From Bdellovibrionales bacterium (GTDB lineage Bacteria > Bdellovibrionota > Bdellovibrionia > Bdellovibrionales > UBA1609), in contig JBFWVI010000009.1 in NCBI GenBank assembly GCA_050246815.1, forward strand, positions 3,238 to 67,237: a DNA stretch of 64,000 nt, given 5' to 3'. The notes beneath the pieces were generated by a model. The model had not been told where the DNA came from. It searched no databases and saw only the letters and a list, made by a program, of their open reading frames with translations. This document shows, in pieces, positions 3,818 through 56,800 of the stretch. The position numbers and the translations under genes were made by a program. The first letter of the stretch is position 1; the number at the start of each line of letters is the position of its first letter.

Positions 3818-4028
3818 TAAATAAATATAATTTATATTAATCAATTTCGCTCAAGTGGCTTGCCGTTTTAAGCCCTTCTTCGGGCTCCCGTCCCCCAGTT
3901 TTTAAAAACCAACCCCCTCAAACCTCAAATCCCGGTTTTTAGGCCCTAAAACAGCTTTTTTTCGCCGCCGCTTGACTGTCTGCCCGCGATTAAGCATCTT
4001 AGCCCCTCGCGCGATTTGCGAAGCCCGT

Positions 4029-4104
<76 letters not shown>

Positions 4105-4254
4105 CTAAAGCTTCGCCGATTAAGCGATAAGGTGTTGTAAACACTTGAGTTTTTCGCCCACTCGAAACTGCAAAACTTTTCTTCGAAAAAGATTGCGAAT
4201 TGAGATTGACGTGAGCCCCTCAAGTCCATTAGAACCCTTAGCTCTGCAAAAAAC

Positions 4255-4267
4255 TGCTCTTTGAAAA
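4255..4267 (+). promoter_or_regulatory. boxA-like rRNA antitermination element in the 16S leader
   Basis: TGCTCTTTGAAAA compared with the enterobacterial boxA consensus TGCTCTTTAACAA. It lies between tRNA-Ala and the 16S gene. Confidence 0.5.
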
Positions 4268-4305
4268 CTAAATAGCTAGTCAACACAAGAAGGTTTTAGG
4301 TCTCG
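4257..4305 (+). other. 5' half of the 16S precursor processing stem (pairs with 6001..6040)
   Basis: Leader AAAACTAAATAGCTAGTCAA is the reverse complement of spacer TTGACTAGCTGTTTAGTTTT (6014..6033), allowing one U-G pair. Flanking bases extend the complementarity. This is a typical RNase III-type stem enclosing the 16S. Confidence 0.6.
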
Positions 4306-4430
4306 ATCCTTTGAAGACCGCAAGGTCGGCTAAAGGAACGAGTCAATGAATTTTTAGTTTTGTCATGCAATACGTTGAAAAACGATTTGATGCTTAGACA
4401 AACTATTTTGTTTAAAAATTTAAAAGTTTA

Positions 4431-5955
<1,525 letters not shown>

Positions 5956-6096
5956 TTTAGACTGTCGAACGGTGTTCGGCACGTCTCACTTCGTTGGTCA
6001 TCCCTAAGACCTTTTGACTAGCTGTTTAGTTTTGAGAGAGCACAAAGCCACTTTGCGGTACGTTGTTTCTGGTGGCGGTGTAGATAGAAGACCTAG

Positions 6097-6173
<77 letters not shown>

Positions 6174-6241
6174 TCTTTTCAAGCAAGAGTTCGCGGAAGC
6201 GAAAGTTTGCTTGAGAATATGAGAGGCGAAAGCTTTCTCTG

Positions 6242-6254
6242 TGATCTTTGAAAA
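6242..6254 (+). promoter_or_regulatory. Second boxA-like element in the 16S-23S spacer
   Basis: TGATCTTTGAAAA resembles the leader copy at 4255..4267 and lies upstream of the 23S, as in many rRNA operons. Confidence 0.4.
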
Positions 6255-6404
6255 TAGAATATATTTGTTATCGATAGTTAAGTTTTTAACTATCAGCAAA
6301 AAAACCATAAGTTTTTTATTTTTTAGATTAGAGAAAAGATAAGAATTACTACCTAACAAAAATTAGGTTCAAGTAATTCTTAGCAAGGTGAGTTCAAATA
6401 CGAA

Positions 6405-9387
<2,983 letters not shown>

Positions 9388-13950: not shown

Positions 13951-14123
13951 CATTTTTTTTCGCAGATAAATTTGTCCAAAAAATATTCAGATTCAACCTG
14001 ATCCCGATTTGGTTGGGGTAAGATGTCTCACTTTGAGACCGTTCGTATTTAAATAAATCTGAAGCTTCTCTCCAAGTTTAAATTGGCTGATAATGGGAGC
14101 AGTAGACTTATGCCGGGGTACCC

Positions 14124-33692: not shown

Positions 33693-33699
33693 GGTGGTC

Positions 33700-35772
33700 A
33701 TGTCACGTCTTTGGGTCCTCTTATCGTTTCTGCTTCTGATGGTTGCCTGTGCCAGTTTTCGCTTTGGCAAAGTCGACGAGCCGCCATCTTGGCTAGAAAA
33801 TGGCAAGGCCCCCCAAACCATCGCATGGGTGCAGGCCGAGAACGAGAGGGTGAAGCGGGACTTCGCTGATCACGCCGACTTCAAGGGTGTATATGATCGT
33901 GTGCTTGATTTTTATGAAAGCGGAACCCGCCTACCGCAGGGAATGATCCATGGCGTGCACTTTTACAACTTGATGCAAAATACGGCGCATCCGCGCGGAC
34001 TTTGGCGGCGGGTAAGCACGAAAATTTTTCGACACCACGGTCGTCCAGCTGCCGAGCACTGGGAGATTCTTCTTGATGTGGATCAGCTTGCAGTCTCACA
34101 AGGTAAAAACTGGGTTTTTCAGAACGCGATTTGCTGGAAAATGCAGCGTTGCCTTTTGTTTTTGTCTAATGGCGGCAGCGAAAACATGGAAATGCTGGAG
34201 TTCAGTCTGCTCGAAAAGAAAATCGTAATCAATGGTTTTCAACTGCCTGAGGGGCGGCATCGCGTGGCATGGCTAAGTGGCGACCAGATTGTGTTGGCGA
34301 CTAAGCGCGAAGATAAGTGGTCTATAGGACAGGTGCGAGTGTGGCAACGAGGCCAAACCTTGGCCGAAGCGGAGGTGGTGAGAGGAATTGAGCTGGATAA
34401 GGCGATTTTGACGCCACTGACTCAAGGTTTAAATCCGGGTCAGATTTTTTTCATTCGCAAACACTCACTTTTTGCTCAAGATTATTTGTTGGTGACCAAA
34501 GATCGGCATGTTTTTCCGGTGAAAGTTCCGCCCACCGCGCAACTTTTGGAGGTTGACGCACATCGCGGATATTTTTTCTTGAGGCGTCCCTGGCCGCAGG
34601 CCGGCCCACAGTTCACTGCTGGCGCGGTGGTGGCGGTTTCATGGGACAACTTGGTTGTGCCGCCAGAGTTGGTATGGCCCGGTTCAGAAGGGCAAATGGT
34701 GGTTGGCGCCAAGTCGCTGAAGTCATCGTTGCTGCTGAATGTTTTGAAAAACCTAAAAAGCGAGGTGATCGAGCTTCGCCGCAGTGCCAAAGGGTGGGCG
34801 GGTGAGACGTTGGGTGTGCCAACTCTCGGAAACGTTACGTTTATTGAAGGCGAAGGAAGGCCCGATGAAGCGTGGATAGTAAACGATTCTTATTTAATTC
34901 CGACGCGTCTAATGAGCTGGCGGGTGGGGGAGAAAAAATTTGTCGTGGAAGCAAAATCCAAGCCTTCTTTTGCAACCGAAAACCTGGAGCGAATTTCAGA
35001 TGAGGCGGTAAGTGAAGATGGCACCCGAATTCCGTATGTGGTGATCAAACCTAAAAATTTGCCTATGGGCGCCAGAACTCCCGCTTTGTTGAATGGCTAT
35101 GGTAGCCTTGTCTTTTTGGGGCTTGAAACGTATTTGGGCGCAGTTGGTGCAACATGGCTTAAGGACGGTGGAATTTGGGCTTTCGCCCATGTGCGAGGTG
35201 GGCTGGAGCTTGGTCCTGATTGGACCTTTGCCGCGCACCGTGAAAATCGCGCGAAGGCTTATGCGGATTTGCATGCCGTAGCCAAAGCGATTCATCAAAA
35301 AGGCTGGAGCAGTCCTGCGCACACAGGGTTGTTTGGCAACAGCAAAGGCGGCTTGTTGGCGGCGGCCACGGCGACCACCTATCCGGCCGATTTTGGCGCT
35401 GCTGTTTTGCGTGTCCCAATTTTGGATTTGTTGAATTTTTCACGTTGGCCCAACGGTGCCAGTTGGACAGACGAGCTGGGAGAGCCTCGCTCAGAGAGCG
35501 ATAGAGCTTTTCTTAAAAAGCACTCCCCCGTGCAACCAGAAAAAGTGGTGGGCAAGCTTCCCGCATTCTTGCTGCTTACAGCCACTGACGATGATCGAGT
35601 TGCTCCGGCTCATGCGCGTCGCATGGCGTGGTTGCTGCAAAGAAACGATCAGAAATTTTATTACTTTGAAAGTGAAGAGGGGGGGCATGCACTTTCGAAT
35701 AATCCCCTTCAACGAGCCTTTCGAACGGCTCTGGAATTGACATGGCTTAAACGCGAGCTGTCAAAGCCCTAA
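33700..35772 (+). CDS. S9 prolyl oligopeptidase-family serine peptidase, lipoprotein (paralog 2)
   Basis: The ATG at 33700 follows an AAGGTGG RBS. It has lipobox LLMVAC, and catalytic elements GNSKGGLL, TATDDDRVAP and EEGGHALS. Confidence 0.85.
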   Translation: MSRLWVLLSFLLLMVACASFRFGKVDEPPSWLENGKAPQTIAWVQAENERVKRDFADHADFKGVYDRVLDFYESGTRLPQGMIHGVHFYNLMQNTAHPRGLWRRVSTKIFRHHGRPAAEHWEILLDVDQLAVSQGKNWVFQNAICWKMQRCLLFLSNGGSENMEMLEFSLLEKKIVINGFQLPEGRHRVAWLSGDQIVLATKREDKWSIGQVRVWQRGQTLAEAEVVRGIELDKAILTPLTQGLNPGQIFFIRKHSLFAQDYLLVTKDRHVFPVKVPPTAQLLEVDAHRGYFFLRRPWPQAGPQFTAGAVVAVSWDNLVVPPELVWPGSEGQMVVGAKSLKSSLLLNVLKNLKSEVIELRRSAKGWAGETLGVPTLGNVTFIEGEGRPDEAWIVNDSYLIPTRLMSWRVGEKKFVVEAKSKPSFATENLERISDEAVSEDGTRIPYVVIKPKNLPMGARTPALLNGYGSLVFLGLETYLGAVGATWLKDGGIWAFAHVRGGLELGPDWTFAAHRENRAKAYADLHAVAKAIHQKGWSSPAHTGLFGNSKGGLLAAATATTYPADFGAAVLRVPILDLLNFSRWPNGASWTDELGEPRSESDRAFLKKHSPVQPEKVVGKLPAFLLLTATDDDRVAPAHARRMAWLLQRNDQKFYYFESEEGGHALSNNPLQRAFRTALELTWLKRELSKP

Positions 35773-35871
35773 AATTAAATTTTGGAAACCTTCTCATTTT
35801 CTCAAAAAAGACGCCTCATTTTGAGACCGCGGCTTAAGGTCGAGTTCACTTTATCCGATCATATAGACGAG

Positions 35872-38800
35872 ATGGTTGAACGTGGATTGATAAGCTCAAT
35901 TATAACTGCTTGGAGTCGGCGCTTTGCGCCTGCGGTTTTTTTGCTTTCAGCCATTGCACTTTCGGGCTGTAAACTAGAAACCAATATAAAAGACCTGACT
36001 GAGCCAGCATCCGACATTCCGATTTTATCCACTCAAGACGTGAGCATTACCGAAGGCACAACGGCGGCTTACTTGGTGACCATGAACCGGTCGTCCTCGA
36101 TGCCGGTGGTGGTGGTTTATCAGACGCTGCCGCAAACAGCCACCAGTGGCGCGGACTACACGGCGTTGTTTGGTTTGTTGACTATTCCTGCGGGGCAGAC
36201 TTTTGGTTATCTGCCGCTAGCGGCGCTTGAAGATCCCAACTACGAAGGCAATGAAATTTTTCGTGTTGAGTTGAGTGCGGCGAGCAATGCCGTGATGGCG
36301 TCTGCGACCTTGGCCAAAAACATCACGATCCTGGACAACGAGAACCGCCCGAAAGTTTTCATTTCGGATGCGACGGTTGGAGAAGGCGGCACGCTGACGT
36401 TCAACGTGACGACGGATGTGCCGTCGGAGCTCGAGGTGGCGTTCAACTATGCTTCGGTTGCGGGATTGGATCCGGATCCGCTGATGAGAGCTTCGGCCGG
36501 GGCAGATTTTACGAGTGTGGCGGGTCGGATCACCTTGGCGGCGTTGTCGATGGCGACATCGATCCCTGTTATTTCGCTTCAAGACATTTTGGATGAGAAC
36601 GACGAGCTCTTTCATGTGACTTTGACTTCGCTTTCGAACTCGGATCCGGGTGATGTGTCAGGCCTTGGTGAGATCACGGACGATGATCTTGCACCCGTGC
36701 TGTCGGTTTCGGATTTGAGCATCAATGAAGGCGACACGGGCTCTTTGGCAGTGAGTTTGTCGGTGATCTCGGGATTGCCGGTGGTGTTTGACATCGCGAC
36801 CAGCAACGGCTCCAACGTCGACCCGACGTTGAATGCGCAAGCGCCCGGTGATTACACGGCGAAGAGTTTGGTGTCGGTCACGATTGCGGCGGGGCAAGCG
36901 CAAGTGATCGTGACGTTGGTGACAATCGAAGACCTTGTGGATGAGCAAGACGAAGGGTTTTTTGCCACAGTTTCAAATGTGACCAATGCGGGCACCGGTC
37001 AGTTGATTTCAAATGTCACCATTGTTGACGATGATGGCCCACCCTTGATCTACATCACCGACACTGCGGTTGTGGAAGGTGGAACGTTGGCATTTGTGGT
37101 GTCGTTGACCGCACCATCGGCGCTGGATGTGACCTTTAACTTTCAAAGCTTTGATGGCACGGCCACCACGGCTGACAGCGATTACACCGGCATCAACAGC
37201 GCCGGTACGATCCCCATGGGCTCTTTGACGACCCTAGTCTATGTTATCACTACAGCCGACACCAAGTACGAAGCCAACGAGACCATGACCGTGTCTTTGT
37301 CGGCGGTGGTGAACGCGGGCAATGGTGATTTACTGGCCACAGGTACGATAACCAACGATGATTCACCCCCCGGTCTTTATATTACAGATGCGGCTGTGCT
37401 TGAAGGCGAGACAGCGCACTTTGTGATTTCTTTAAGCGAGATCTCTTCGCAAGATGTGACGGTGAATTGGTTCACAGCCAATGGCACGGCAACCACGTCT
37501 GACAGCGATTACACGGGCGTGGCATCAACACTGGTCACGATTCCAGCCGGCTCTTTGACAGTTGGTGCCGCGGTTATCACCGTTGAAGACACGCGCTACG
37601 AAGCCAATGAAACTTATAACGTCAGTCTGCAAACGGCCACTGGTGCCACCATCGTGGATAACACAGGGGTCGGCACGATCACCAATGACGATGTTTTGCC
37701 AACGATCTACATCGATGACTTGACCATGAGCGAAGGTGAGACCGGGCAGTTTGTGGTGTCGTTGTCGACTGCTGCCGGCCTGCCTGTGGTGTTTGATTGG
37801 CAAACTTTCGCCGCAACCGCCACGGCGCCTGGTGACTTTACGGCCGTGACGACCACCACCAGAACTATCCCCGCGGGCACCTTGTTCGTGAATGTTGCCG
37901 TGATCACCACGGAAGACGCCCTGAACGAAGTGAGTGAAAATTTTCAAGTTTCATTGTCTTCTTTAACCAACGCGGCGGCCGGTGACTTGCTTGCAACCGG
38001 CACCATCACCGATGATGATGCGGCCCCCAGCCTTTATATTGTAGACGCCGCAGCCGTGAGCGAAGGTCAAACCAGCGTCTTTTGGGTGACCATGACTGCG
38101 GCCTCGGGCCTTGACGTGACCTTTAACTATCAAAGCGTCGATGGCACCGCAGTTTCAACCCAGGACTACACGGCCGTGGCCTTGACCATGGGCACGATCC
38201 CAGCGGGCAGCTTGTCGGTGGCCATCAATGTAGTGACCATCGATGACCTGGTCGATGAGACCAGCCCTGAAAACTACACCGTCACCTTAACATCTCCCAC
38301 CAATGCCACCATTTCCGATGGCATCGGCCTTGGCACGATCAATGACAACGACAACCCACCCTTACTTTATGTCCTAGACTCTTCTGTCAACGAAGGTGAA
38401 ACGCTGACCTTTTATGCGACCTTGTCGCAAATTTCGGATTTAGACGTGGTGTTTAACTACACTTCATTAGACGGAACCGGTGGTGATCGGGCCCAAGCTC
38501 CTGGCGATTACACTTCGGTGTCGAACCAAACTATGACGATCCCGGCGGGTAGCCTGTCGGTGGCCATGCAGGTGGTCACAGTTGAAGATGTCACCTTTGA
38601 AGCAGACGAAAAGCTCAATATCACTTTGTCTTCTTTAAGCAACGTCACCTTAGGCGATGACGGTCTAGGCGAAGGCACGATCTTAAATGATGACGCTGGC
38701 CCCTTGATCTTTATCGGCGATGCCAGTGTGACCGAAGGTCAAACAGCGGTGTTTGCGGTGACGATTTCTGCTTTGAGCAGCGTGGATGTGATTTTCACCT

Positions 38801-41800
38801 GGAACACCACAAACGACACGGCGACCGGAGGTTCGGATTACACGGCAGTCGGTGCGACAGTTGTGACGATCCCGGCCGGCAGTTTAACCACGGCCGTGAG
38901 TGTTGTGACAATAGATGATGTGGTGGCGGCAGAGCCGGCCGAGACCTTCAACGTGACGTTGACCGGTTTAACGAACGTGAACTCTGGCGACATCAACGGT
39001 GTTGGCACTATTAACGATAACGACACGTCGACGCTTTATATCGGCGATGCCTCTGTGACCGAAGGTGGCACGCTGATTTTTGCGGTGACTTTATCTTTGG
39101 CCACGGGCGTGGATGTGACATTTAACTTTCAAACGGTGGATGGCACGGCGACGACAGCAGACAGCGATTACACCTCGATTGCATTGACTGCGATGACGAT
39201 CCCAGCGGGAAGTTTGACCAGCTTCTTGGCTGTTGTGACCGCTGCGGACACGAAGTATGAAAACAATGAAACGCTGAACGTGACGTTAACGTCAGCGGTG
39301 AACGCCGGCGCTGGTGACATGAACGGCGTGGGTACGATCAACAATGATGATTCGGTGCCTGGGGTCTATATTAATGATGTCACGGTTATTGAAGGCGGTA
39401 CGGCGAATTTCAGTATCTCTTTAAGCGCGGTCTCTGGTGTGGATGTGACTGTGAACTGGGCAACGATTGACGGCACAGCCACCACCGCAAACAGTGATTA
39501 CACGGGTGTCGGAACGACACTGGTCACGATCCCTGCAGGATCGCTCTCGGTTGTAGGCCCGGTCATCACATTGCAAGACACCCTACATGAGAACAGCGAG
39601 ACCTACACAATCACGCTGACTTCGGCCACGGGTGGCACAATCGTCGATGGCTTGGGGCTTGGCACGATCACCGACGATGACACGGCTCCGCAGTTGTCGA
39701 TCTATGATTTGACGATCTTAGAGGGTGAAACCGGCCAGTTTGTGGTGAGTTTGTCGGCGCTTTCGGGGCTTGAGACCGTGTTCTCATGGCAGACGTTTTT
39801 TGGTACGGCCACGGCGCCTGATTTCACGGCTGTTTCAACCACCGTGATCACGATTCCGGCGCTCACAAGTTCGGTGCAACTGCCCTTGATCACGACTGAA
39901 GATCTTTTAAATGAAGGTGATGAGACCTTCTTGGCTTCTTTGTCGGCGGCAAGCAATGCCACGTTCTTAGATGATCTGGCCACAGGCACAATTACTGATG
40001 ATGATGGTCCGCCGATGCTGTATGTGCTGGATGCGGCAAGTGTGACCGAAGGTCAAACAAGTCTGTTTTGGGTGACGCTCACGGCGGCCTCGGGCCTTGA
40101 TGTGACCTTTAGCTATCGCACTTTTAATGACACGGCTGTTTCGACTCAAGATTACACTGCGGTTGGGCTGACCAGTGCGACGATCCCGGCGGGCTCTTTA
40201 AGTGTCAGCTTTAACGTGGTGACGATCGATGACACTCAAGATGAGGTTTCGCCAGAGTATTTTGATCTTTCGATTTCGGCCCCAAATAACGCGACCATTG
40301 CGGATGCTTTAGGCAAGGGCGGCATTACCGATAACGACAACCCGCCCGAGATCTTTATTGCGGATGTCGCGGTGAGCGAAGGTGGGACGCTTGGTTTTTG
40401 GGTGACCTTGTCGGCGCTTTCAGATTTGAATGTGGATTTTAGCTATGTGACGAACGATGGTTTAGGCACAGACAAGGCCGAGGCTCCTGGCGATTACACC
40501 GCGATCACGCTGACGGCGGGTCAAATCCCGGCGGGCTCTTTAAGTCTGTTGATTAATGTGGTGACGATTCAAGAGAGCATTTTTGAGGTGAACGAGCAGT
40601 TGACCGTCACCTTAAGTGCGCTTTCCAACGCCACTTACGGTGATGACGGCATCGCCACGGGTACGATCACCAATGACGATGCGGGGCCAAGTATTTTCAT
40701 TGGTGATGCCAGCGTGACCGAAGGTCAAACGGCGGTGTTTGCAGTGACGATTTCTGCTTTGAGCAGCGTGGATGTGATTTTCACTTGGAACACCACAAAC
40801 GACACGGCGACCGGTGGTTCGGATTACACCACAGTCGGTGCGACAGTTGTGACGATCCCGGCTGGAAGCTTAACCACGGCCGTGAGTGTTGTGACAATAG
40901 ATGATGTGGTGGCAGCAGAGCCGGCCGAGACCTTCAACGTGACGTTGACCGGTTTAACGAACGTGAACTCTGGCGACATCAACGGTGTTGGCACTATTAA
41001 CGATAACGACACGTCGACGCTTTATATCGGCGATGCCTCTGTGACCGAAGGTGGCACGCTGATTTTTGCGGTGACTTTATCTTTGGCCACGGGCGTGGAT
41101 GTGACATTTAACTTTCAAACGGTGGATGGCACGGCGACGACAGCAGACAGCGATTACACCTCGATTGCATTGACTGCGATGACGATCCCAGCGGGAAGTT
41201 TGACCAGCTTCTTGGCTGTTGTGACCGCTGCGGACACGAAGTATGAAAACAATGAAACGCTGAACGTGACGTTAACGTCAGCGGTGAACGCCGGCGCTGG
41301 TGACATGAACGGCGTGGGTACGATCAACAATGATGATTCGGTGCCTGGGGTCTATATTAATGATGTCACGGTTATTGAAGGCGGTACGGCAAATTTCAGC
41401 ATCTCTTTAAGCGCGGTCTCTGGTGTGGATGTGACTGTGAATTGGGCTACGGTTGACGGCACGGCCACCACCGCAAACAGTGATTACACGGGTGTGGGAA
41501 CAACACTGGTCACGATTCCTGCAGGATCGCTCTCGGTTGTAGGCCCGGTTATCACATTGCAAGACACCCTACATGAGAACAGCGAGACCTACACAATCAC
41601 GCTGACTTCGGCCGCAGGTGGCACAATCGTCGATGGCTTGGGTCTTGGCACGATCACCGACGATGACACGGCTCCGCAGTTGTCGATCTATGATTTGACG
41701 ATCTTAGAGGGTGAAACCGGCCAGTTTGTGGTGAGTTTGTCGGCGCTTTCGGGACTTGAGACCGTGTTCTCATGGCAGACGTTTTTTGGCACGGCCACGG

Positions 41801-44800
41801 CGCCTGATTTCACGGCTGTTTCAACCACTGTGATCACGATCCCGGCGCTCACAAGCTCGGTGCAACTGCCCTTGATCACGAGCGAAGATCTTTTAAATGA
41901 AGGTGATGAGACCTTCTTGGCCTCTTTGTCGGCGGCAAGCAATGCCACGTTCTTAGATGATCTGGCCACAGGCACAATTACCGATGATGATGGTCCACCG
42001 ATGCTGTATGTGCTGGATGCGGCTAGCGTGACCGAGGGGCAAACAAGTCTGTTCTGGGTGACGCTCACGGCGGCCTCGGGCCTTGATGTGACCTTTAGCT
42101 ATCGCACTTTTAATGACACGGCTGTTTCGACTCAAGATTACACCGCGGTTGGGCTGACCAGTGCGACGATCCCGGCGGGCTCTTTAAGTGTCAGCTTTAA
42201 CGTGGTGACGATCGATGACACTCAAGATGAGGTTTCCCCAGAGTATTTTGATCTTTCGATTTCGGCCCCAAATAACGCGACCATTGCTGATGCTTTAGGC
42301 AAGGGCGGCATTGCCGATAACGACAACCCGCCTGAGATCTTTATCGCGGACGTTGCGGTGAGCGAAGGTGGGACGCTTGGTTTTTGGGTGACCTTGTCGG
42401 CAGTTTCAGATCTGAACGTGGATTTTAGCTACGTGACGAACGATGGTTTAGGCACAGACAAGGCCGAGGCTCCTGGCGATTACACGGCGATCACGCTGAC
42501 AGCGGGTCAAATCCCGGCGGGCTCTTTAAGTCTGTTGATTAATGTGGTGACGATTCAAGATGTGGTGGCGGAACCCAGTGAGTTGTTGACTATGACTTTA
42601 AGTGCGCTTTCAAACGCCGCCCATGGTGATGACGGCATCGCCACGGGTACGATCAACGACAATGACGTGGTGCCGTTCACTTGGGTGGGCACGACGGGCG
42701 ATGGTTTGTGGTCGACGGCCGGTAACTGGTCAGGCCTTACGGTTCCGACGGCGGCCAATGTGGCCACATTCACAAACGTTTGTTTGGGGGCAAATTGCAA
42801 TGCCACTGTGGACGTGGCGGTGGATGTACAGGGTCTCAATATGACCTCGGCTTATTCGGGCACGATCACTCAAGCTGCAGGCGTGGCGCTGCGCACAGGA
42901 AATTCAGATTGGCTGATGGCGGGCGGTGCGTTTATCGGTTCAAGTGGTGCGATCACGATCAACCGCGATTTCAATCAATCGGGCGGTACGTTCACGGCAG
43001 GTACGCAAACGATTGAGGTGCAACGCAATTGGACGAGCACAGCCGGTGCTATGAATATGACGGGATCGACGGTGGAATTCAAGGGCGCAAGCGGCACCAC
43101 AATCAATATTGGCGCACAACAATTCTATAATTTGAGTTTATTAAAAGACGCATGGACGGCCGCGGCGGCGACCGGAAGCGTCACTATAGCAAATGATTTT
43201 AGTTTAAATCAGGGGTTTAATGCATTTAACCAGGGACGAGTGACAGGCGGCACATTTGATGTCGTCAATCGTGTCAATCTAGGCCTCAATAATGGTGGCT
43301 ATGGGCCTTGGGCGTTGCGGTTGGTGGGTACGGGAGCTCAAACCATCGCGGGTGGAATCGATAGCGAATCTGCATTAAACCAACTTCATATCGCGAAGCC
43401 GTCAGGCTTGGTCAGCGTCGAAGGCACGATTGGTATTGACTCAGATTTTACATATATGAGTGGCTCAACATTCAATGCCGGAACTAGCGCGATACATTTT
43501 ATTAACGGCTATGGAACGCTAAGCCTAGCCTCGGATTTAGATTTTTACGACGTTAAGATCGCCAAATACCAGTATGCCAATGTGACGATTGTCGGCGCCG
43601 GTACGATGCAGGTGAATCATGACCTCACCTTGGATGCTTCAAACGTGCTATTAGGTGGGGCGCTTTTGGGCGGAAGCATTCGCGCAATGGGCAATGTCTA
43701 TGCCAACAGCACGGGTGGTTACTTGGGTGGTAGCACGACAGTTTTGTATTTGGCGGGTACGGGGGCGCAAACGATCGTGGGTGGCGACGGCGACCTGCCA
43801 AGCGTTGTGATAAATTCAACAGGAACTGTTGATTTGACGGGCACATTTGCAGTGGTTGGGTCGTTTATTCATACCAACTCTGCCGGGCTAAGTGCTGGAA
43901 CTTCAACTGTGTACCTGGAATCCACCGGCACATCCACAGTGAGTATGGGTGCACAGTCTTTGAACAATGTGAATGTCAGTTCGGGCAGCGGACGTTCAAT
44001 GGTGATTGCTGGGGCTTTAACGATTAACGGCAATGCGGAGCTGAGCGGTTCTGCAGGCGGTAACACCCTAGATGGTGGCACGTTGGTGGCCAAGAAGAAC
44101 GTTTCGATTACGTCGGCGGACTTTGATGGTGGCACGGCCTCGATTCTGTTGAATGGAACGGGAGCGCAAACGATCAGCAATCCAGGCGGTGGCGCCTGGA
44201 CATCGGGCAAAAACTACGTGGATAAAGTAAGTGGTGCGGTGGAGCTTGCAGGTAACACCACCTTTGCATTGGCTCAAGACATGGATTTCACGTCCGGCAC
44301 GATCAATATGCGTGGTTATGATTTGGGTATTCGCGACGCATTGACGATGGCCTCGGGCACAACAATCTACACAGATTGTGGCGTCTTAACCTACAACGGT
44401 GGCTCATCCAGTTTAGGCGGCACAATCATTGACGGCACGCCAGGAGCATTATTGTCGGTGAACGACGTGACGGTCAGCGAGTCGGCAGGCAATGCCACCT
44501 TCACGGTGACATTGGCGGCACCCTCTTGCGCACCGACAATCTTTAACTTCGCAACCGTCAACGGCACGGCCGTCCAGCCCGGTGATTACACTTCGACATC
44601 AGGCGTGGGCACAATCCCGGCCGGTCAGCAATCATGGACAACAAACGTGCCGATCATCGACGATACGCTGTATGAAGGTGCCACCGATGAGACCTTCACA
44701 TTCTCGTTGTCGGCGGTGATGGGAGCGCCTGTTTTAGATCCTTTGGGCGTGGGCTCGATCACCGACAACGATGCGCAGCCCAATATTTTCGTTAATGATG

Positions 44801-47800
44801 TGACCGTGACCGAAGGTCAGACGGCGAATTTTGTGATCAGCTTGTCGAACGCAACCACTTCGGATGTGACCTTTACGTGGGAAACGGTGAACGGCACGGC
44901 GACTTCGGGTGCGGATTACACCGGGGTTGGTGCGACCAGCGCCACGATCGCGGCCGGCCAGTTGGCGATCACTGTCGCCGTGGTGACGACGGATGATGTG
45001 GTCTTTAGCGAGGGCGATGAAAACTACAACGTCACGTTAACTTCTATCGCTAATGCCAGTGCGGGCGACACCAACGGCGTGGGCACGATCAATGACAATG
45101 ACAACGCCTTCTTGTTTATTGCGGATGCCGATGTGGTCGAAAGTGGCACGTTGCTATTCGTGGTGACAATGAGCGCTGTCAGTGGGTCTGAAGTGACCTT
45201 TAGCTTCCAATCTTACAGCGGTTTGAACTCGGTGATGGGTGGAGCCGCTGCGACCTCGGGCACGGATTTCACCGCGATCAGCGGCACGGCCACGATCAGC
45301 GCCGGCGTATTGGCAGTGACTTTGCCTGTGGTGACCACGGTGGATGCGACTTACGAAGGCTTGGAAAATTTAAGTGTCACGATCAGCGCACCAGTGGGTG
45401 CGTCGATCACGGATAGCACAGGCCTTGGTTTCATCCACAACGACGACTGCCCAGCCACCGGCTGGTGCCAGCAGGCTTATATCAAGGCGATCAATGCGGA
45501 TGCGGGCGATATCTTCGGCGAGGGCGTTTCTATAATGGATGATACCCTTGTGGTCGGCGCTCCTTACGAATTAAGCAGTCAGACCACGATTACCAATGAT
45601 ACCACGGCTTCATCGGATAACTCGGCCTCACAAAGCGGCGCGGCTTATGTGTACGTGCGCAGTGGCAACACATGGGTGCAGCAAGCTTATATCAAACGCG
45701 GTAAACACGATGGTTACTTTGGTCGCTCTGTTTCAATCAATGGCGACACGCTGGCCATTGGGGCCTTTCTTGACGTGAGCGGCAGCACACAAATTTTTAA
45801 TGGCACGGGCATGGCCTATGATTCACCCGGAGGTGCCGAGTACGGCGCTGTCCACATCTACAAACGAACGGGCAGCACTTGGGTACAAGAGGCCTTTATT
45901 AAAGCATCGAATTCAAGGGCTAACACTGATTTTGGCAATGGATTAAATTTGGCGAAAGACTCCTTGGTCGTGGCATCGGCCTCGGAAAGTAGCAACCAAT
46001 CATATATCACCCAAGGCACAGGAAGTTCCACTGATGCTTCAAGCGCCGCGGCTGGGGCAGTTTACATTTATAGAAGAACTGGCAACACTTGGGTACAAGA
46101 GGCTTACGTCAAGGCCAGCAATCGTAACAACAACGATCGTTTTGGTTTTGGCACGGCTTTTGACGGCCAGACCCTGGCTGTGGGGGCGATCTATGAGGAC
46201 AGCAATGGCACGGGTGTTTATAATGGCACGGGTGCTTCAGCCGATAATAGCTCGGCCGATTCTGGTGCTGTTTACGTGTATGCACGAAGCGGCACATGGG
46301 TTCAGCAAGCGTATATCAAATCTGCGTTGACCGGCGGTTCGGCGTATTTTGGTTATGATGTGGCCTTGTCCGGAGACACCTTGGTTGTCGGTGAACCGCT
46401 TGGCCGTGCCAGTGCTGTATTGATCAACGGCACGCAGGCCCCAGTGGATGAAAACGTCTATGGGACGGCGACTGTTTACAAGCGTACCGGCAGCACATGG
46501 GTACAACAAGCTATATTGAAGCCTCCGGTTCAAAACTACGCCCAAATATTTGGCGCGGCGGTAGCCATCAGTCAGGATCGTGTAGCCGTGGCTGCATACG
46601 CCGAAACAAGTTTAGAAAGCCAGGTCTTCAATGGCACAGCCGTGCCAAATCCCAATGCCGGTACAGACGAAACTGGAGCGGTATTTGTGTATGCGCGCAC
46701 AGGCAGCACGTGGGTGCAGCAGGCCACCTTAAAGCCCAGTAATCCCGATAATGTGTCTAGTTTCGGGGCGCCAGCGTACGATACGGCAACATTTTCACCT
46801 CACCGCAGTTTGGCAATTTCGGGCGATACGATTGTGGTAGGATCAAATGCCGAACGCAGCAATCAACGTGGCATCACCAATGGTCCATGGGCATCCCTTA
46901 ACCGAAGCGCGATAAGTTCTGGCGCAGCCTACGTGTTCCATTACAAGGGCGCACCTCAGGTGACCATCCAGCAGGCCGCCACACAAGTGGATCCGGCATC
47001 CAGCTTGCCGATTGAGTTCAGTGTGGACTTCGGTAAGGCGATAAGCACCGCCACTTTCACCGATGCAGACATCACGCAAAATGGCACAGCGACCGGCATT
47101 ACCTGGTCGATTACGAATCCGTCGGGCGACAATCGCAACTTTGTGTTGCAAGCCACTGGTGGCACGGCGGGCACATACACTCCAAGCGTGGCTGCCGGCT
47201 TAGTGACGGATGTGGATGGCAACACCAACTTGGCGTCTTCAACTGAATACGACAACAGCGTGACGTACAATATTCCGCGCAATTTGTTTATCACCGATGC
47301 CGAAGTTGTTGAAGGCGGCACCATGGTCTTCACTGTGAGTCTTGATGGCACAGCCGGCAGTGATGTGACATTTAACTATCAGTCGTACAGTGGTTTGAGT
47401 ACTCAGTTGGGTGGAGCCGCTGCTGCACAAGGCACAGATTTTACTGCGACTAGTGGTGCTGCAACTATTCCGATGGGCTCATTGACGTTGGCACTTTTGG
47501 TGGTGACGACAGTGGATGCGACTTATGAAGGCATGGAGAACTTAAGCTTGACCTTGAGTTCAGCAAGCGGCGCCACGATCAGCGACTCAACGGGTTTAGG
47601 CTTCATCCACAACGACGATTGCCCAACAACGGGCTGGTGCCAGCAGGCGTATTTAAAGGGCGCCACCGCCGACGCCAATGATCTGTTTGGCTATTGGACA
47701 GCAATTCACCGGGACACCGTGGTGGTCGGTGCGCCGTACGAGTCTGCGGACACGTCCTCTGTGCTAAATGGCACAGGAGGATCTTCAAGCAATGGCCGCA

Positions 47801-50800
47801 GCCGCACAGGTGCAGCCTACGTCTACAAGCGCACCGGTGGCACATGGGTGCAAGAAGCTTATTTGAAGGGTGCCACAACAGATGTAGACGACTTTTTTGG
47901 CGATACTGTGGCGATCCATGAAGACACCATCGTGGTCAGTTCTTACGGCGAGGGTTCAAGCTCAAGCACAATTGTCAACGGCACAGGCGGGTCCAGCAAC
48001 AATTCGCACAGCAATGGTGGTGCAGCCTATGTGTTCAAACGAACCGGTAACACATGGGTCCGAGAAGCTTATTTGAAAGCCGGTACCCCCAAGGATTCTT
48101 CTTATTTTGGAGAAGCCGTGAGTATTCATGGCGACACTATTTTGGTCACTGCACTTTCAGACTCGAGCGGTGTCAGTGGTGTGCTCAATGGCACGGGTGG
48201 CTCGACAGACACCTCGGTGTCTTCAGCCGGTTCGGCCTACATTTTTAAGCGCACAGGCAACACGTGGGTGCGTGAAGCTTACTTAAAGGCAGCCAATCCA
48301 GATGCAAGCGATTATTTTGGCAGTTCTGCGGCATTGGATCGCGACACGGCCGTGATTACGGCCGCGTGGGAGAGCAGTGGCACAAGTACCGTCCTGAATG
48401 GCACAGGAGGCTCTGCAGATAATTCTGTCAACCAAGTTGGCGCGGCTTATGTGTTTAAGCGCACAGGCAACACGTGGGTGCAAGAAGCCTATCTGAAACC
48501 TTATACGGCAATCGTGGCCTACATGTTTGGTCAATATGACACTGCCATCAGCGGTGACACGATTGCCATTGGCGCGAATGGCGACAGCAGCAACGCGACG
48601 GGCATTACTCACGGGACGGGTGGGCCTGCCGACACTTCGGGTTCAAGCTATTCAGGCGCGGTTTATATCTTCAAACGCACGGGCAGTACATGGGCGCGTC
48701 AAGCCTTTATCAAAGCCACAAACGCAGGGTCTTGGGATCAGCTGGGTAGCTGGGTTTCTTTGTCGGGCGATTTGTTGGCGGCGGGTGCTGATAGCGAGGA
48801 CAGCTATCAGAGTCTGGTTTCCAGCGGAACCTTGGCTTCGTCCACCAATGACGGAACAGATATTGGTGCTGCATATATTTTCCGTCGTACGGGCAATACT
48901 TGGGTACAGGATGCATATATTAAACCTTCAAATGGTGATACGGGCGACTTATTCGCGAGTGTTCGAATTGATGGTGACACCTTGGTGGTTGGTGCAAGAG
49001 GGGAATCCTCTAATTTGACGGGTGTGATCAACGGCCCGTACGCTTCGATCAACAACAGTGCCGTCAGTTCTGGCGCAGCCTACGTGTTCCATTACAAGGG
49101 CGCGCCTCAGGTGACCATCCAGCAGGCCGCCACACAAGTGGATCCGGCATCCAGCTTGCCGATTGAGTTCAGTGTGGACTTCGGTAAGGCGATAAGCACC
49201 GCCACTTTCACCGATGCAGACATCACGCAAAATGGCACAGCGACCGGCATTACCTGGTCGATTACGAATCCGTCGGGCGACAATCGCAACTTTGTGTTGC
49301 AAGCCACTGGTGGCACGGCGGGCACATACACTCCAAGCGTGGCTGCCGGCTTAGTGACGGATGTGGATGGCAACACCAACTTGGCGTCTTCAACTGAATA
49401 CGACAACAGCGTGACGTACAATATTCCGCGCAATTTGTTTATCACCGATGCCGAAGTTGTTGAAGGCGGCACCATGGTCTTCACTGTGAGTCTTGATGGC
49501 ACAGCCGGCAGTGATGTGACATTTAACTATCAGTCGTACAGTGGTTTGAGTACTCAGTTGGGTGGAGCCGCTGCTGCACAAGGCACAGATTTTACTGCGA
49601 CTAGTGGTGCTGCAACTATTCCGATGGGCTCATTGACGTTGGCACTTTTGGTGGTGACGACAGTGGATGCGACTTATGAAGGCATGGAGAACTTAAGCTT
49701 GACCTTGAGTTCAGCAAGCGGCGCCACGATCAGCGACTCAACGGGTTTAGGCTTCATCCACAACGACGATTGCCCAACAACGGGCTGGTGCCAGCAAGCC
49801 TATATGAAAGTGCAGTGGGGTAAGCGCCTGGGCGAGTCGACGTCGGTCCATAATGACACGGTTGTTGTGGGTGCGACCACTCACAGCGGCACAGATTCTG
49901 GCGTGATCAATGGTACAGGGATGCCCGGCGACAGTGCACCGCTTAACTCAGGAATGGCTGTTGTGTACGCTCGCAGCGGCAGCACCTGGGTTCGTCAGGC
50001 CACTTTGTTGCCGCCGGCCCCTGACACTTTTGACTATTTCGGTCGAAAAGTCCGAGTGTCTGGCAATACTGCGGTGATGAGCACGGGTGATGAAGACAGT
50101 TTGGCTACTGGCGTGATCAACGGCACGGGCGCGGCGTTTAACGAAGGCGCCAGCGCATCGGGTGCGGCCCTAGTTTACAAAAGAACCGGTAACACTTGGG
50201 TGCAAGAGGCTTATCTAAAAGCCAGCAATGCGGAAGCGGATGACGGCTTTGGTTTTGCCATTGATCTAGACGAAGATACGGTCGTTGTTGGCGCTTACAA
50301 AGAAGACAGCTCCGTGACCGGAATCACGGCCGGCACTGGCGGTTCAAGCGACAACACAGCCGCCGATGCTGGCGCTGTCTATGTCTTTAAACGCACCGGC
50401 AACACTTGGGTGCAAGAAGCTTTCTTGAAGGCCAACAACACGGGGGCAGACGACCAATTTGGTTACAGCGTGGCCGTTTCGCAAAATACGGTTGTGGTGA
50501 CAGCTCCGAATGAGGATTCGAGCTTAACGGGTGTTTCAAATGGCCCCGGCTTCACCGACAACGAATTGGGCGCCAATGACGGTTCTGCCTATGTTTTTCG
50601 AAGAACAGGCAGCACTTGGGTGCAAGAGGCGATTTTGCGTTCTTCTGGTGCAGGTGGGCAGCTCTTCTTTGGTAATGATATCGATATCAGCGCCGATTCG
50701 ATCATTGTTGCCAACTACTTGGATTACAGCGACGAAACCGGTGTTAAAAACGGCACCGACGGTCCGATCAATTCAGATGCCTCAGCTTCTGGCGCGGCCT

Positions 50801-53800
50801 ACATCTTTAAACGAACCGGTCTGACTTGGGTTCAAGAATCTTACCTCAAAGCCGGTAACAGTGAAGCCAACGACGAGTTCGCCCGGGGCGGAGTTGCCAT
50901 TTCGGGTAATTTAGCGGCCGTGGGTTCGATTCGTGAGGATAGTATCAGCAGTCAAGTGATCAACGGCACGGCCTCGGCAACTGATAACGATGGGGTTAAT
51001 TCTGGCGCGGTCTATGTGTATCGGCGCACCGGCAACACCTGGGTGCAAAGCGCCTACTTAAAAGCCAGCAACGGAAAAGCCGGTGATTTATTTGGTAGCA
51101 GTGTCGCAATCGATGGTGACACTTTGATTGTGGGGGCAGAAGAGGAGTCCTCCACCGCCACTCAAGTGGCGAATCAAGCTTGGGCGCCTGCATTCGCGCA
51201 AGGCAGTTCAATCGGTGCGGCCTATGTGTTCTATTACAAGGGTGCGCCCGAGGTGGTTATCCAGCAAGCTTCCACGCAGGCTGATCCAACTTCAAGCCTG
51301 CCCATCGCGTTCAACGTCGCCTTTTCGAAACCAATTTCGGCCGGCACCTTCACCGATGCCGACATCACTCAAGGCGGCACAGCGACGGGCATCACTTGGT
51401 CGATCACCAATCCGTCGGGCGATAATCGCAACTTCGTTTTACAGGCAACGGCGGGCACAGCGGGCACTTACATTCCAAGCGTGGCGGCCGGCCTAGTGAC
51501 AGATGTGGATGGCAACACCAACTTGGCGTCTTCGAGCAGCTTTGATAACAGCGTCACATATGCACCGCCGAGTTATTTATATATTAGTGACGCCTCGGTT
51601 CTTGAAGGGGGCACGCTTGTATTCAATGTGAGCCTTGATGTTACATCCACCAGCGAAGTGACGTTTAACTATCAAACAGTCAATGGTACGGCCACCACCG
51701 CCGACAGTGATTACACCTCAGTGGCATTGACCGCATTTACAATACCCGCCGGCACATTGACCACCAGCTTGTTTGTGGTCAGCACGCCGGATACTCGCTA
51801 CGAAAATGACGAGACTTTGAGTGTCACTTTAACCTCGATTGTGACCGCGATCCCAGGCGATACGGACGGCTTAGGCACTATCCAAAACGACGATGCCGTG
51901 GTTGGCATCAGCGTCTATGATGTGGCGATCAATGAAGGCGAAACCGCACAATTTGTGGCAAGCTTAAGTGCCGTTTCAGGCTTAAATGCAGTCTTCCAGT
52001 GGCAAACCATCAACGGAACCGCGACTTCAGCTAGCGATTACACCGCGGTCAGTTTGACCACTGTGACCATTGTGGCCGGTCAGCTAACCATCTTGCTGCC
52101 GGTCATCAGCACAGAAAATGCGACTGCAGAACCCACGGAGCAGTTCACAGTGAGCCTGAGTTCAGCCACCAACGGGAATTTTGTCGACCCGGTGGCGATT
52201 GGAACTATTTTAGATGATGATGTGGCCGCGTTCACTTGGGTCGGCACCACGGGTGATCAAAAGTGGACCACTGCGGCCAACTGGTCCACCGGCACTGTGC
52301 CGGGAAGTGCGGATATTGCCATCTTTAATAATGTTTGTGCGACTCTTTGCGCTGCCAATATTGATGGCAACATCACGGTGAGCGGTATTCTTTTAGAGTC
52401 CACTTACACGGCGACACTTTCACAAAATACGGGTCAGCCGATCACCGTTGGTTTTGATGATTTGATCATTGCTGGTGGAGCGTTCCAGGCGAGCAATGCG
52501 GATATCCGCTTAAACGATGCGGTTTGGCAGCAAGGTGGCACGGTCAATATGGGTTCGGCCAATTGGTACTTTGATAACTGCCGAATTGACGCCGGCACGT
52601 GGAATGCGCAGACCTCAACAGCTCACATGAATGGGTCGGGATTTTCTGGGTCACTTATCGGGGCGGCCACATTTAACAATTTATCTTTAGTGCGTGATAC
52701 GTCTTTAGGAAATCCAACCGAGGCTCAAGTCAATGGAACGATCACAGTGGCAGGAACACTGTTACTCGATAAGGTCGGCTCCAACGCGCATCAATTGACG
52801 GCGGTTGGCAGTTCGAAAATCGTCGCTCTTGGCAATGTGAACGCGGTTGATTTTGACGGTGGTGACACCGGCTTAATTGAAATCGGCGGCACCGGAGTTC
52901 AGACCCTCACGGGTGGGATCGGTGGACAACTGCCCAATGTCGCTGTGATCAAAACGGGTGGTTCGCTCGATTTGGTGGGCACCATCGACTTTGCGGAAAG
53001 TCTCGGTATGGCTTCGGGAACCGTGAATGCCGGCACATCGACAGTACGATTCGTCAACACGGGTAGCATCACGGTGGTTCAGGGTGGCGTTGATTTTTAC
53101 AATATGGAATTTCGCAAAGACACATCTGCTGGTAATTTGACAGTGACCTTGGGTGCTGGGAGCCATTTGTTTGCGGATGGGGACGTGCTTTTTGAAAGCA
53201 CGGGTTCTAATCGAATGAACGTCGTTCATCCCAGCTCGAGCAGTATTGTTGTTCAAGGGGATATCACTGCGACTAAGGTTTACGATACGCCATCATTGCG
53301 TACTAATAAGCCCAGTGGGACACAAACGATTACGGGGGTCGCGGGGGCACAGCTTGGGGCAATACACCTAGGCAGCGCATCCACGGTTAATTTAGTTGGT
53401 ACCATAGACATCTTGGAAGGCTTCGAGAACTTGAGTACCGCGACAGTTAATCCTGGCACTTCGCTGGTTCGATTTATTAACGCGCCAGATGTGGCCGCCA
53501 ACAGCTCCGCAATTAATTTGGGTGCTGGAAATTACCTCAACCAAGTTGTTTTCAATAAATCGTCTGTATGGAACACAATAAACGGAGTGGTGACCATCAC
53601 CGGGAACTTGACGATCGACAATAGCAACACAGGTAACGGGATTAATTCCGCACCGGTGCAAGTGCAAGGCAATGTAGTGATGTTGGACAACGATGAGGGC
53701 ACCGGCCGCATCGAAATGACAGGGGCCGCCCATACCACCGTCACCATGGTGGCAAGTTCGGCTTGGCCCACGGGCGGCTGGACTGTGAATAAACCCGGAG

Positions 53801-56800
53801 CCAGTGTCAGATTGCTTTCAAACATCACGCTGTCACCCGCAGGAACGGACTTAACTCTGACGGCGGGAACAATCAGCCTATCGGGTTACCACTTAAGCGT
53901 ACGCGATGTTTTGACCATGGCCTCGGGTACCGTGATTGACAAAGGTTGCGGCACCGTGCGTGTCAATGGCACGTTGTTGCCAGATGGCCCCTACAGTTCC
54001 GGAACCATTACCAACACATCTCCATCCATCAACCTTTCCGTCAATGATGTGACCGTTGGTGAGGCCGATGGCAACGCCACATTTACCGTGACTCTCAGTG
54101 GGGCACATTGTGCAGCGGTGACATTTAATTACGCGACCGTCAATGGGACGGCGGCGCAGCCTGGTGATTACACGTCAACTTCTGGGGTGGGCACGATTGC
54201 TGCGGGACAGCTGACGTTGGCGGTGAATGTGCCGATCATCAATGACTCAGATTACGAGGGGTCAACAGATGAGACCTTCACGCTTTCGCTCTCTGGAGTT
54301 TCGGGTGTGGCCGTGCTGGATCCTTATGGTGTGGGTTCCATCACCGACAACGATGCCGCGCCAGTTCTTTTTATCTCTGACGCCACCGCCACAGAAGGCG
54401 GAACACTCGACTTCATAGTGACTTTGGCCAGCAGCAGCGGTAGCGAAATCACATTCAACTTCCAGACCTACAACGGAACCGCCACCACGGCTCAAGATTA
54501 CACGGCACAAAGCGGATCGGCCACCATTGCGATAGGCGCCACTTCGGTGACCATCAGCGTGGTGACACTTGATGACACAACTGATGAGGAGAGCCCTGAA
54601 AGCTTAACCCTCACAATTAGTTCAGCAACCAATGCCGCGATTGTCGACACCACCGGAGTCGGCTCGATCAACGACAACGACAATGCGCCTTTGATTTTTG
54701 TCAATACGGCTTCCGTCAACGAGGGTGGGACGCTTCAATTTGGTGTTTCGCTTTCGCAGAGTTCGGATCGAGAAATCACCTTTCAGTACAGCACAAATGA
54801 TGGCGCTGGTTCAGACAAGGCTGAGGCCCCCGGTGATTACACGGCGGTGACAAATCAAGTTGTGACTATTGCGGCGGGCAGCCTCACCACAAGCCTTGGC
54901 GTTGTCACTGCGCAAGAAACTACTTTCGAAATGAACGAGAAAATGAAAGTGGTGTTGTCTTCTTTAGTCAACGTCACCTCTGGCGACACAGGGGAGGCCG
55001 AGGGTACGATTAGCAATGAAGACACTTTCACGCCTGTGGTTGTCGCAGTTTATCCGACCAATGGTGCGAACTGGAACGACTACGTCAAGTACGACAATGA
55101 TAACGGCGGCACCAATACTTTCAATCAAGACGACATAGCCTGCACGGGTGCCGAAACCGGCCGCTATGGCCAATTGAACGGTTGTATCCACGGTGGTGAA
55201 AGGCGCAAAGTCACTGTCACCGGTTATACTTCGTGCGCGAACTTAACCATGACGGATTCTGTTGGCGCCTTTGATTGGAAGTGTATCGTCTCTGGGGGCA
55301 CAGCCACGTTTTACTCCACAAGCTTTAACTCGGGCAAAGGTTTGGCGGATCTTATTAATGCAACGTCTTGGAAGAACATAACCGTCACGGTTTTAGATGG
55401 TGTGACCACGCTGGGGACTTCGGCCGCCGCCGCATGGGCATCAAATATCGTAGCGGCGTTGCCTGATAATAACAGCACTGGTGCAGTCGTTCAACTTGAC
55501 GGCACTGATGATGACACCAGTGGGCCCGATTTCGGCATTACGGCGGGTTCGATCCTGACGCGCTCGACGGACATGACTGCAAGCCGTGGGTTTAACCTGA
55601 ATGCGGATAGACTTAGCATCGTGACTCTTGGCACGGCCAGAATCACTTACGATCCAAGTGCGGGAGCAGTTTGTGATTGGACGACAGGTGAAACGACCGG
55701 CGCAACTACGTCAGTATTTCTCTGCACCGGAGGTCAAAAATTTATATGGATTGAAGGCAATTTTGCTGGGGATACCTCGTCGACCAATGACTTGCTCATG
55801 ACTCTGGTGAATACAAAGCATTCGCGAGTTCATAAAACACGATTGACTCGATCTGAATACGAAACATTTTATTTGTACAATTCGAACTCAAACATGGTGA
55901 CGGATTTGGCGATCCATACCGGCAGTGCATACTACAACACGTTCGGTGTTGACGCTTCTTCATACAACACATTTGTTGGGGTCAAGGTTTCAAACTCAAT
56001 TGCAGCCAATCCTTATGTCGCGATCTATGTGACGGGAGCTTCGTCTTACAACGTTTTTCACGAGATCGCGCTTTCAAATGCCCCACACTATGGCTTTTTT
56101 CTTGAAAACGGCACCAATAACACGATTTCAAAAGTGGTTTTGGCCAACACCACCGGTCGCGCGTATTATATTAGTGGAGCTCAGGGTTCTGTGGCCCGAA
56201 ATACCACAAGTCACCTGACGATGGCCAACGCCGAAGGGATCATTTTAGAAGGGTATACCTTTGGGGCTGATTACCAGACCCTCAACCAGGCTGTGGTTGC
56301 CAACGGAAGTGACTATGCCGCGCTCTATGTCTATGGTGCGAACAATGCAAAAATATCGCAATTTGTAAGCGGTCATAATTCGGTGGACCTGACCGCGAGC
56401 GGCAGCAATGGATTTTTCACGAACAATATGCTGATTGGCCCGTCGGCATCGGGGGCATGTAATGGCAATACCGGGACAAACACCGGTCTTGGCGCATTTA
56501 CCTGTACAAACCAAGGATCTTCGGACGCCAACTTTGTCATCGGCAGCTCGATTGACCTGACCAACTCATTTGTTGGCAAAGCGACTAGTGATTCGGCCAA
56601 CACATCTGACACATCCGGTACTGCGGCATACAATACGATCACTGACTTTTTGAACTTTGAAAATTTCTATCGTCTATGGGGGCTTGATGGTTCGGGAGCC
56701 TTCCCTCATGCCAGCCAAGAGGGTCGTTGTTCAGGCACCAGCACTTGTCGAATTTGGGATTGGCGTTTGAAATCCACGGATACTGTTCTTCGTAATAAGA

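Follow-up and report, generated by a model that had tools for sequence, protein, structure and literature searches.

Periscope Proteins (SasG/Aap, Rib, Sgo_0707, Esp and CdrA) are surface proteins with stalks made of tandem domains of high DNA identity, and intragenic recombination has been proposed to change their repeat number and hence their projection distance (PMC8201768). In giant RTX adhesins, including MpIBP/MpAFP (region II), SiiE and LapA, the extender regions are stiffened by Ca2+ (PMC4083281, PMC7493085, PMC5466336). Here we describe a giant gene, predicted to encode a lipoprotein with a long array of Calx-beta domains, in a metagenome-assembled genome (MAG) of an uncultured member of the Bdellovibrionales (NCBI GenBank assembly GCA_050246815.1, contig JBFWVI010000009.1). 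The window analyzed is a 64,000-nt stretch of this contig (positions 3,238 to 67,237, forward strand), and coordinates refer to the window unless another contig is named. Two adjacent six-domain units of the array, A and B, appear to be an old in-frame duplication with an interior homogenized by gene conversion, and in a sister MAG, likewise recovered from this landfill population, we found a candidate allele that is shorter by exactly one unit.

Units A and B (domains D9 to D14 and D15 to D20; Table 1) align at an offset of exactly 1986 nt, or 662 codons, in frame with the open reading frame (ORF) 35782..57111. Comparison of 38743-40574 with 40729-42560 revealed 53 mismatches in 1830 nt (97.1% identity), with 46 of the 53 at third codon positions. 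The mismatches were unevenly spread: 10 of 184 sites differed to the left of a 476-nt identical core (38745-38928; 5.4%) and 43 of 1170 to its right (39405-40574; 3.7%), and steep divergence began at 40575/42561. The next-longest identical runs measured 110, 92 and 89 nt, and the core was the sole exact match between A and B longer than 127 nt. An earlier note on this DNA, made from the sequence alone, had described this offset, the perfect core, a mismatch rate of about 5% to its left and a few percent to its right, and strong divergence past about 40570/42556; the alignment agrees with each of these, and the core that it named is exactly the longest identical run. The same note described a 2 x 1986-bp duplication. 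The period is correct, but the highly similar span covers about 1830 nt and not all 1986. Similarly, its unit length of 1986 nt was retained and its register was not, with unit A placed here at 38743-40728 rather than at 38690-40675.

At the protein level, domains six positions apart in A and B were 98-100% identical, except for the D14/D20 pair (81%), while adjacent domains shared only 44-52% identity in the same domain matrix. A more diverged copy of the series, copy 0, lies directly upstream. As the earlier note had proposed, its five domains occur in the same order, D4 to D8 matching D10 to D14 and D16 to D20. Amino acid identity between copy 0 and A/B was 60-65% for D4-D7 and for the D8-D14 pair and 51% for the D8-D20 pair, with nucleotide identity of about 63%. 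Self-BLAST likewise carried the register further upstream, with 37075-38690 aligned to 39061-40676. No partner in copy 0 was found for D9/D15, the domain that opens the unit, and its best other match was D22 (57%). Tandem Repeats Finder reported no repeat, the 1986-nt period lying beyond its 500-nt limit.

The significance of the identical core was assessed by permutation. Given the difference rate of 3.9% in the flanks, about 18 differences would be expected in 476 nt, and none was observed. When the 53 differences were scattered over 1830 sites in 200,000 trials and gaps of at least 476 nt were counted, such a gap arose in 1 of 200,000 trials with all sites (P 5e-6) and in 11 of 200,000 with third codon positions only (P 5.5e-5). 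A Sawyer-type permutation on a codon alignment of the three copies, a gene-conversion test of the kind that the earlier note had called for, was also significant for the identity run of the A-B pair (0 of 20,000). The 476-nt identical run is therefore not a product of chance, and the evenly distributed mismatches that would have spoken against a mosaic are not what the alignment shows.

The divergence between A and B falls into three age layers. Within the core, 0 of 474 sites differed, giving a synonymous divergence (dS) of 0. The flanks of the core had a dS of 0.14-0.21 and a nonsynonymous divergence (dN) of 0.006-0.007. At the junction between the units, J1, comparison with the end of B gave 32 mismatches over 108 nt (dS ~1.0, dN 0.26), and comparison with the start of A gave 13 over 54 nt, nearly all synonymous; overall, J1 was 20-40% diverged from both of its homologues, J0 and J2. 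Since this junction is saturated at synonymous sites, the duplication of A and B must be old. J1 is unique and has unit sequence to its left and to its right, which places at least two units physically head to tail. The low dN/dS of A against B (~0.04) indicates strong purifying selection and hence that both copies are translated and needed.

Consistent with gene conversion, the identity tract is significantly long and its flanks are older than the tract. These data suggest that an old duplication was probably homogenized by nested gene conversion, rather than that a single duplication occurred recently. An old in-frame duplication of the six-domain unit would have come first. A conversion tract of some 1.8 kb (1.83 kb), within which a dS of about 0.15 has since accrued, would then have replaced its interior, and a later, very recent tract of about 0.5 kb would have left 476 nt identical. 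Thus, at least two rounds of intragenic conversion would have acted on the interiors of A and B. The expansion followed by homogenization that the earlier note suggested fits the three layers. We rejected a history made up of one unequal crossover only, for which identity of uniform age should extend over all 1986 nt; the tract found spans about 1830 nt beside a saturated junction.

Table 1. Features of the giant gene and its repeats (window coordinates)
Feature	Position	Strand	Description
Giant gene	35872..57111	+	ORF open from 35782; Pfam Calx-beta and FG-GAP_2; Logan gene call begins 35872
N-terminal Calx-beta array, D1-D20	36058..42702	+	Residues 93-2307; self-built hidden Markov model (HMM), domain E-values 1e-35 to 1e-46
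Old copy 0, D4-D8	37081..38742	+	Five domains, homologous in order to D10-D14 and D16-D20
Unit A, D9-D14	38743..40728	+	1986 nt
Identical core, copy in A	38929..39404	+	End of D9 and D10
Junction J1	40575..40742	+	D14 tail, linker, D15 start; unique, old sequence
Unit B, D15-D20	40729..42714	+	1986 nt; beta-solenoid-like module directly after
Identical core, copy in B	40915..41390	+	End of D15 and D16
R1	46915..47645	+	Ig-like segment and Calx-beta D24; partner 2151 nt (717 codons) downstream
R2, partner of R1	49066..49796	+	Ig-like segment and D25

A one-unit form of the gene was found in a sister MAG from the same landfill (GCA_050187745.1, contig JBFWXE010000018.1, locus L012), which is 99.96% identical to the window. 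In a protein search, its product (P0005, 6,394 amino acids) shared a 90% cluster with the deposited product of the window (P0122, 7,056 amino acids), both from NCBI genomes. Compared with the window's protein as read here (P0001), P0005 lacks exactly 662 amino acids and differs otherwise in a start 53 codons later, the start residue and 3 substitutions; on the same start, the two proteins measure 7,109 and 6,447 amino acids. To the left of the core, the single unit of L012 had the A base at 10 of 10 diagnostic sites; to the right, it had the B base at 42 of 43, the remaining site (40347) having a private base. The sole switch from A to B falls within the 476-nt core, and neither L012 nor P0005 contains J1. 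The single unit is thus what would be expected from unequal exchange in the core. If real, the one-unit form was derived by deletion, because the divergence between A and B exceeds that between the two genomes about a hundredfold.

With the missing unit set aside, L012 and the window showed 9 differences in 22 kb. These group into three compact clusters of 45 to 140 nt each: positions 14117/14211/14256, 18773/18809/18817 and 21587/21605/21677 of L012, corresponding to 35691/35785/35830, 42333/42369/42377 and 45147/45165/45237 of the window. Within the middle cluster (L012 18773-18817), T in the window corresponds to G in the sister MAG. A search within the window found no donor for the clustered L012-specific substitutions, which may be low-coverage sequencing errors or patches of micro-recombination.

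The earlier note had proposed that unequal crossover could add or remove 662 amino acids in frame, and the sister MAG offers a candidate product with its breakpoint in the core, with assembly collapse as the alternative explanation. The organism is present in two runs (SRR27751815 and SRR27751816) of the CA_2019 landfill metagenomes (HiSeq, 2x150 bp). Both genomes are metaSPAdes MAGs (k = 33-127) for which scaffolds of at least 2.5 kb were kept, and the window's genome consists of 149 contigs, the smallest of 2,506 nt. Several points weigh against the explanation proposed here. The core is longer than both the largest k (127) and the 150-nt reads, and for this reason the copy number in the window's genome (at least two) is the assembler's choice. 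Bulge removal could have erased at most 2-3 isolated real differences in the core; the deficit of core differences remains strong despite this slight doubt about "perfect" identity. No k-mer is unique to the one-unit contig, which could equally have arisen from a path that bypassed a loop. Lastly, no further close relatives were found in the collections searched: a DNA search of 40 related genomes gave no match beyond the window's own genome, scans of genome and metagenome contigs with the unit protein gave only relatives at 31-44% identity, and no protein fragments carrying J1 were found in Logan or elsewhere.

In the assembly graph at k=127, A and B would merge only in the core, giving an in-edge, the core, a loop (A-right, J1, B-left), the core again and an out-edge. 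The loop edge being contiguous and unique, it would imply at least two units head to tail in a forced order. The strongest competing explanation, which we rate somewhat below an even chance, is that both populations have at least two units and that metaSPAdes, in the sister MAG, went from A-left through the core to B-right. Such a collapse would account for a switch placed in the only identical stretch longer than both k=127 and the 150-nt reads and for a one-unit path with no diagnostic k-mer; the dropped 1.5-kb loop would have fallen under the 2.5-kb scaffold cut-off, and the clustered T-to-G differences of L012 resemble low-coverage errors. However, the same sister contig resolved a topologically identical and longer loop elsewhere in the gene, between the repeats R1 and R2 (692-nt exact repeat), with both copies kept. 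Assemblers, moreover, normally break at or traverse a well-covered loop and do not skip it. We therefore lean toward a real polymorphism of one and two units, for which the one-unit allele would have to exist as assembled. Whichever holds, repeat number, and hence protein length, is not reliable for such genes in short-read MAGs.

Conversely, the two-unit form could itself be an artifact, such as a pair of strain alleles of one unit joined in tandem during short-read assembly of a metagenome with strain mixtures. We consider this very improbable. J1 joins a unit end to a unit start and is 20-40% diverged from J0 and J2, and the joining of alleles cannot make such a sequence; the frame is open throughout, and the dN/dS is 0.04. 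Reads assembled separately also argue against it. The Logan contig SRR27751816_178093 (k=31) matches the window at 99.993% identity and breaks off at 38787, exactly where the unique 31-mers run out and those common to A and B begin. It runs unbranched from J0 through the A-specific bases 38745 and 38757 and only then branches, as expected for paralogs. Because the contig ends at the first shared 31-mer, the A-left and B-left contexts are both present in SRR27751816, and because it links J0 only to A-type bases, the A/B differences are paralogous and not allelic. An allelic origin of these differences was rejected on the grounds of J1 and of the absence of branching at the A-specific bases. When the predicted partial products in Logan were looked up as exact matches, only this known contig was returned for 35872-38787 and nothing for 42628-46944.

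A single recent tandem duplication without conversion, the core being a chance gap between mutations, would suit copies that are 97% identical and exactly in register. This history is highly implausible: it leaves the roughly 18 differences expected in the core unexplained (P 5e-6 to 5.5e-5), and it predicts 1986 nt of uniform age, where we found about 1830 nt and a junction with a dS of about 1. Selection on the nucleotide sequence of the core, through an embedded RNA or an overlapping gene, was rejected as having a negligible chance of being correct, since no point in its support was found, no ORF of at least 100 amino acids lies inside the core on either strand, the homologous D4 of copy 0 is only 62% identical to D10 in protein sequence, and a second sharp-edged identical tract, R1/R2, points to recombination in this gene and not to a site-specific constraint.

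This second tract lies further downstream in the same gene. R1 and R2 differ by a single mismatch (46953) in 731 nt, are in frame with each other and include an exact repeat of 692 nt. Their edges are sharp, the propellers alongside differing at 40-50 positions per 60 nt at the 2151-nt offset. The pair brackets propeller 2, and both MAGs retain both copies. R1/R2 looks like a clean conversion tract and provides independent evidence for conversion in the giant gene; it is also a possible second site of length change.

Homologous recombination depends on stretches of identity some tens of bases long, and mismatches lower its frequency sharply. Among D1 to D20, the longest exact DNA match between non-partner domains was 21 nt, and adjacent pairs shared 9-21 nt. 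By contrast, A/B partner domains shared exact matches of up to 330 nt within one domain and of 476 nt across D9-D10. Exchange in the array would thus be confined to the six-domain register, with the core preferred, and unequal exchange there, presumably of the RecA type, would gain or lose whole 662-amino-acid units with the frame intact. A bolder proposal is that the six-domain super-repeat is a selected design rather than a by-product of recombination and that one- and two-unit alleles coexist in the landfill population. We regard this as tentative and rather unlikely. If true, the length of the stalk would switch in 662-amino-acid steps (on the order of 20-25 nm) without near-identical neighbors, and the misfolding cost ascribed to adjacent identical domains in Periscope Proteins would be avoided.

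The repeats are part of an open frame of 7,109 codons (35782..57111, about 21 kb). Translation from ATG 35872 gives MVERGLISSIITAWSRRFAPAVFLLSAIALSG immediately before C, the cysteine of an LSGC lipobox (Cys codon 35968-35970). This ATG is the likely translation start, and it is the best candidate that we can identify from the sequence. It yields a complete lipoprotein signal of 32 residues. The NCBI gene call in both MAGs starts at TTG 35941 (MLSAIALSGC...), only 9 residues ahead of the lipobox cysteine, which truncates the signal peptide; the true start probably lies upstream of the deposited one. A self-built HMM made from the protein's own repeats detected 30 Calx-beta domains, 20 of them consecutive. 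Pfam Calx-beta (PF03160) scored 388 and 160 bits for the two halves of the gene (cut-off 27), and FG-GAP_2 propeller repeats were also matched in Pfam. After the lipobox, the Calx array comes first, and the distal part includes two beta-solenoid-like modules, three propellers and a C-terminal domain of 681 amino acids. From this order, D1 to D20 would form an anchor-proximal stalk or rod, and the lipoprotein is predicted to be exposed on the cell surface.

The fold of the array was examined with an AlphaFold model of D9-D10, for which the alignment input was the gene's own domain pairs (predicted local distance difference test score 92.8). The top Foldseek matches were the paired calcium-binding domains (CBD12) of NCX1/CALX (E 6e-11; 3us9, 3rb7, 2dpk, 3e9t and 3fq4). 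Single domains superposed on NCX1/CALX CBDs with template modeling (TM) scores of 0.81-0.85 and a root-mean-square deviation of about 2 A. A phmmer search of unit A against PDB sequences had given no match, while the fold search did find matches. D9-D10 is thus modeled as having the seven-stranded beta-sandwich fold of NCX1 CBD1/CBD2. Invariant acidic columns in the domains (D33, E68, E108, D143, E174, E177 and D204) are candidate Ca2+ ligands.

The two beta-solenoid-like modules (42700-44490 and 52258-54072) are each about 600 amino acids long, are rich in Gly, Thr and Asn, and open with FTWVGTTGD..W..A.NWS. Neither had a Pfam match at E <= 0.1, and the C-terminal 681 amino acids (55066-57108) also had no Pfam match. 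This C-terminal domain recurs at 33-39% identity at the C-terminus of open frames of about 800-1500 amino acids in 11 of 40 related genomes. It resembles a conserved functional module that, in this species, would have been extended by about 6,400 amino acids of repeats.

Directly upstream of the giant gene, two genes of the S9 prolyl-oligopeptidase family lie head to tail (31575-35772), separated from each other by 1 nt and from the giant-gene ATG by about 100 nt; they may be cotranscribed with the giant gene. A 692-amino-acid, GTG-start version of the second peptidase was not on record in an exact look-up. Downstream lies rpsA, with a product 84-86% identical to proteins named 'Bdellovibrionales bacterium', and a nearby ABC ATPase is part of a phosphonate-type importer. 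Elsewhere in the window, about 4.8 kb (3817-8629) lack any ORF of at least 100 amino acids on either strand, a stretch of the size of an rRNA operon.

In concerted evolution, as seen for tufA/tufB and for rRNA operons, paralogs are kept alike because stretches hundreds of bases long are copied from one to the other non-reciprocally. As in those systems, units A and B are far more alike than their age implies, and their identity is mosaic. Unlike tufA/tufB and rRNA operons, the copies here lie side by side and in frame within one gene, so that reciprocal exchange also alters the length of the protein. The locus offers a clean, quantified case of concerted evolution within a single gene, in which three layers of age are resolved, the mosaic is tested for significance and a candidate product of recombination has its breakpoint where predicted.

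In its domains, the protein resembles NCX1/CALX CBD12 and the Calx-beta domains of integrin beta4, with which it shares a predicted fold. Sequence identity is about 17-24%, and whereas the pair in the exchanger is a regulatory Ca2+ sensor, the 20 domains here would form a structural array. As in the giant RTX adhesins, a huge protein is built of tandem beta-sandwich domains with conserved acidic residues at the domain ends, and the repeats of MpAFP are identical at the DNA level, as is the core of the giant gene. Unlike those adhesins, the protein begins with a lipoprotein signal and has Calx-beta in place of bacterial immunoglobulin-like (BIg) domains. RTX repeats (HemolysinCabind) were absent from the Pfam matches of both the whole protein and the C-terminal 681 amino acids, and no type I secretion genes (ABC exporter, membrane fusion protein or TolC) adjoin the giant gene.

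The closest likeness is to Periscope Proteins, with which this lipoprotein shares tandem folded domains of high DNA identity (97.1% over 1.83 kb) between an anchor and distal domains, as well as a candidate natural length variant, from one short-read MAG, that is off by exactly one unit. It differs in that the repeat is a six-domain super-repeat with only two young copies, that the anchor is an N-terminal lipid at a lipobox and not a C-terminal LPXTG, that the domains are of the Calx-beta type, and that the host, unlike those of the Periscope Proteins listed above, is known from an uncultured Bdellovibrionales MAG. Further, adjacent identical domains are stressed for Periscope Proteins (PMC8201768), and neighbors here are at most 52% identical. 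The array thus appears to keep a substrate for recombination without placing near-identical domains side by side. Collectively, the giant lipoprotein is probably an ordinary variable-length repeat surface protein of the Periscope kind, with the six-domain super-repeat as a modest twist, and it would extend the idea of a variable-length repeat stalk to a Calx-beta lipoprotein and to an uncultured Bdellovibrionales lineage.

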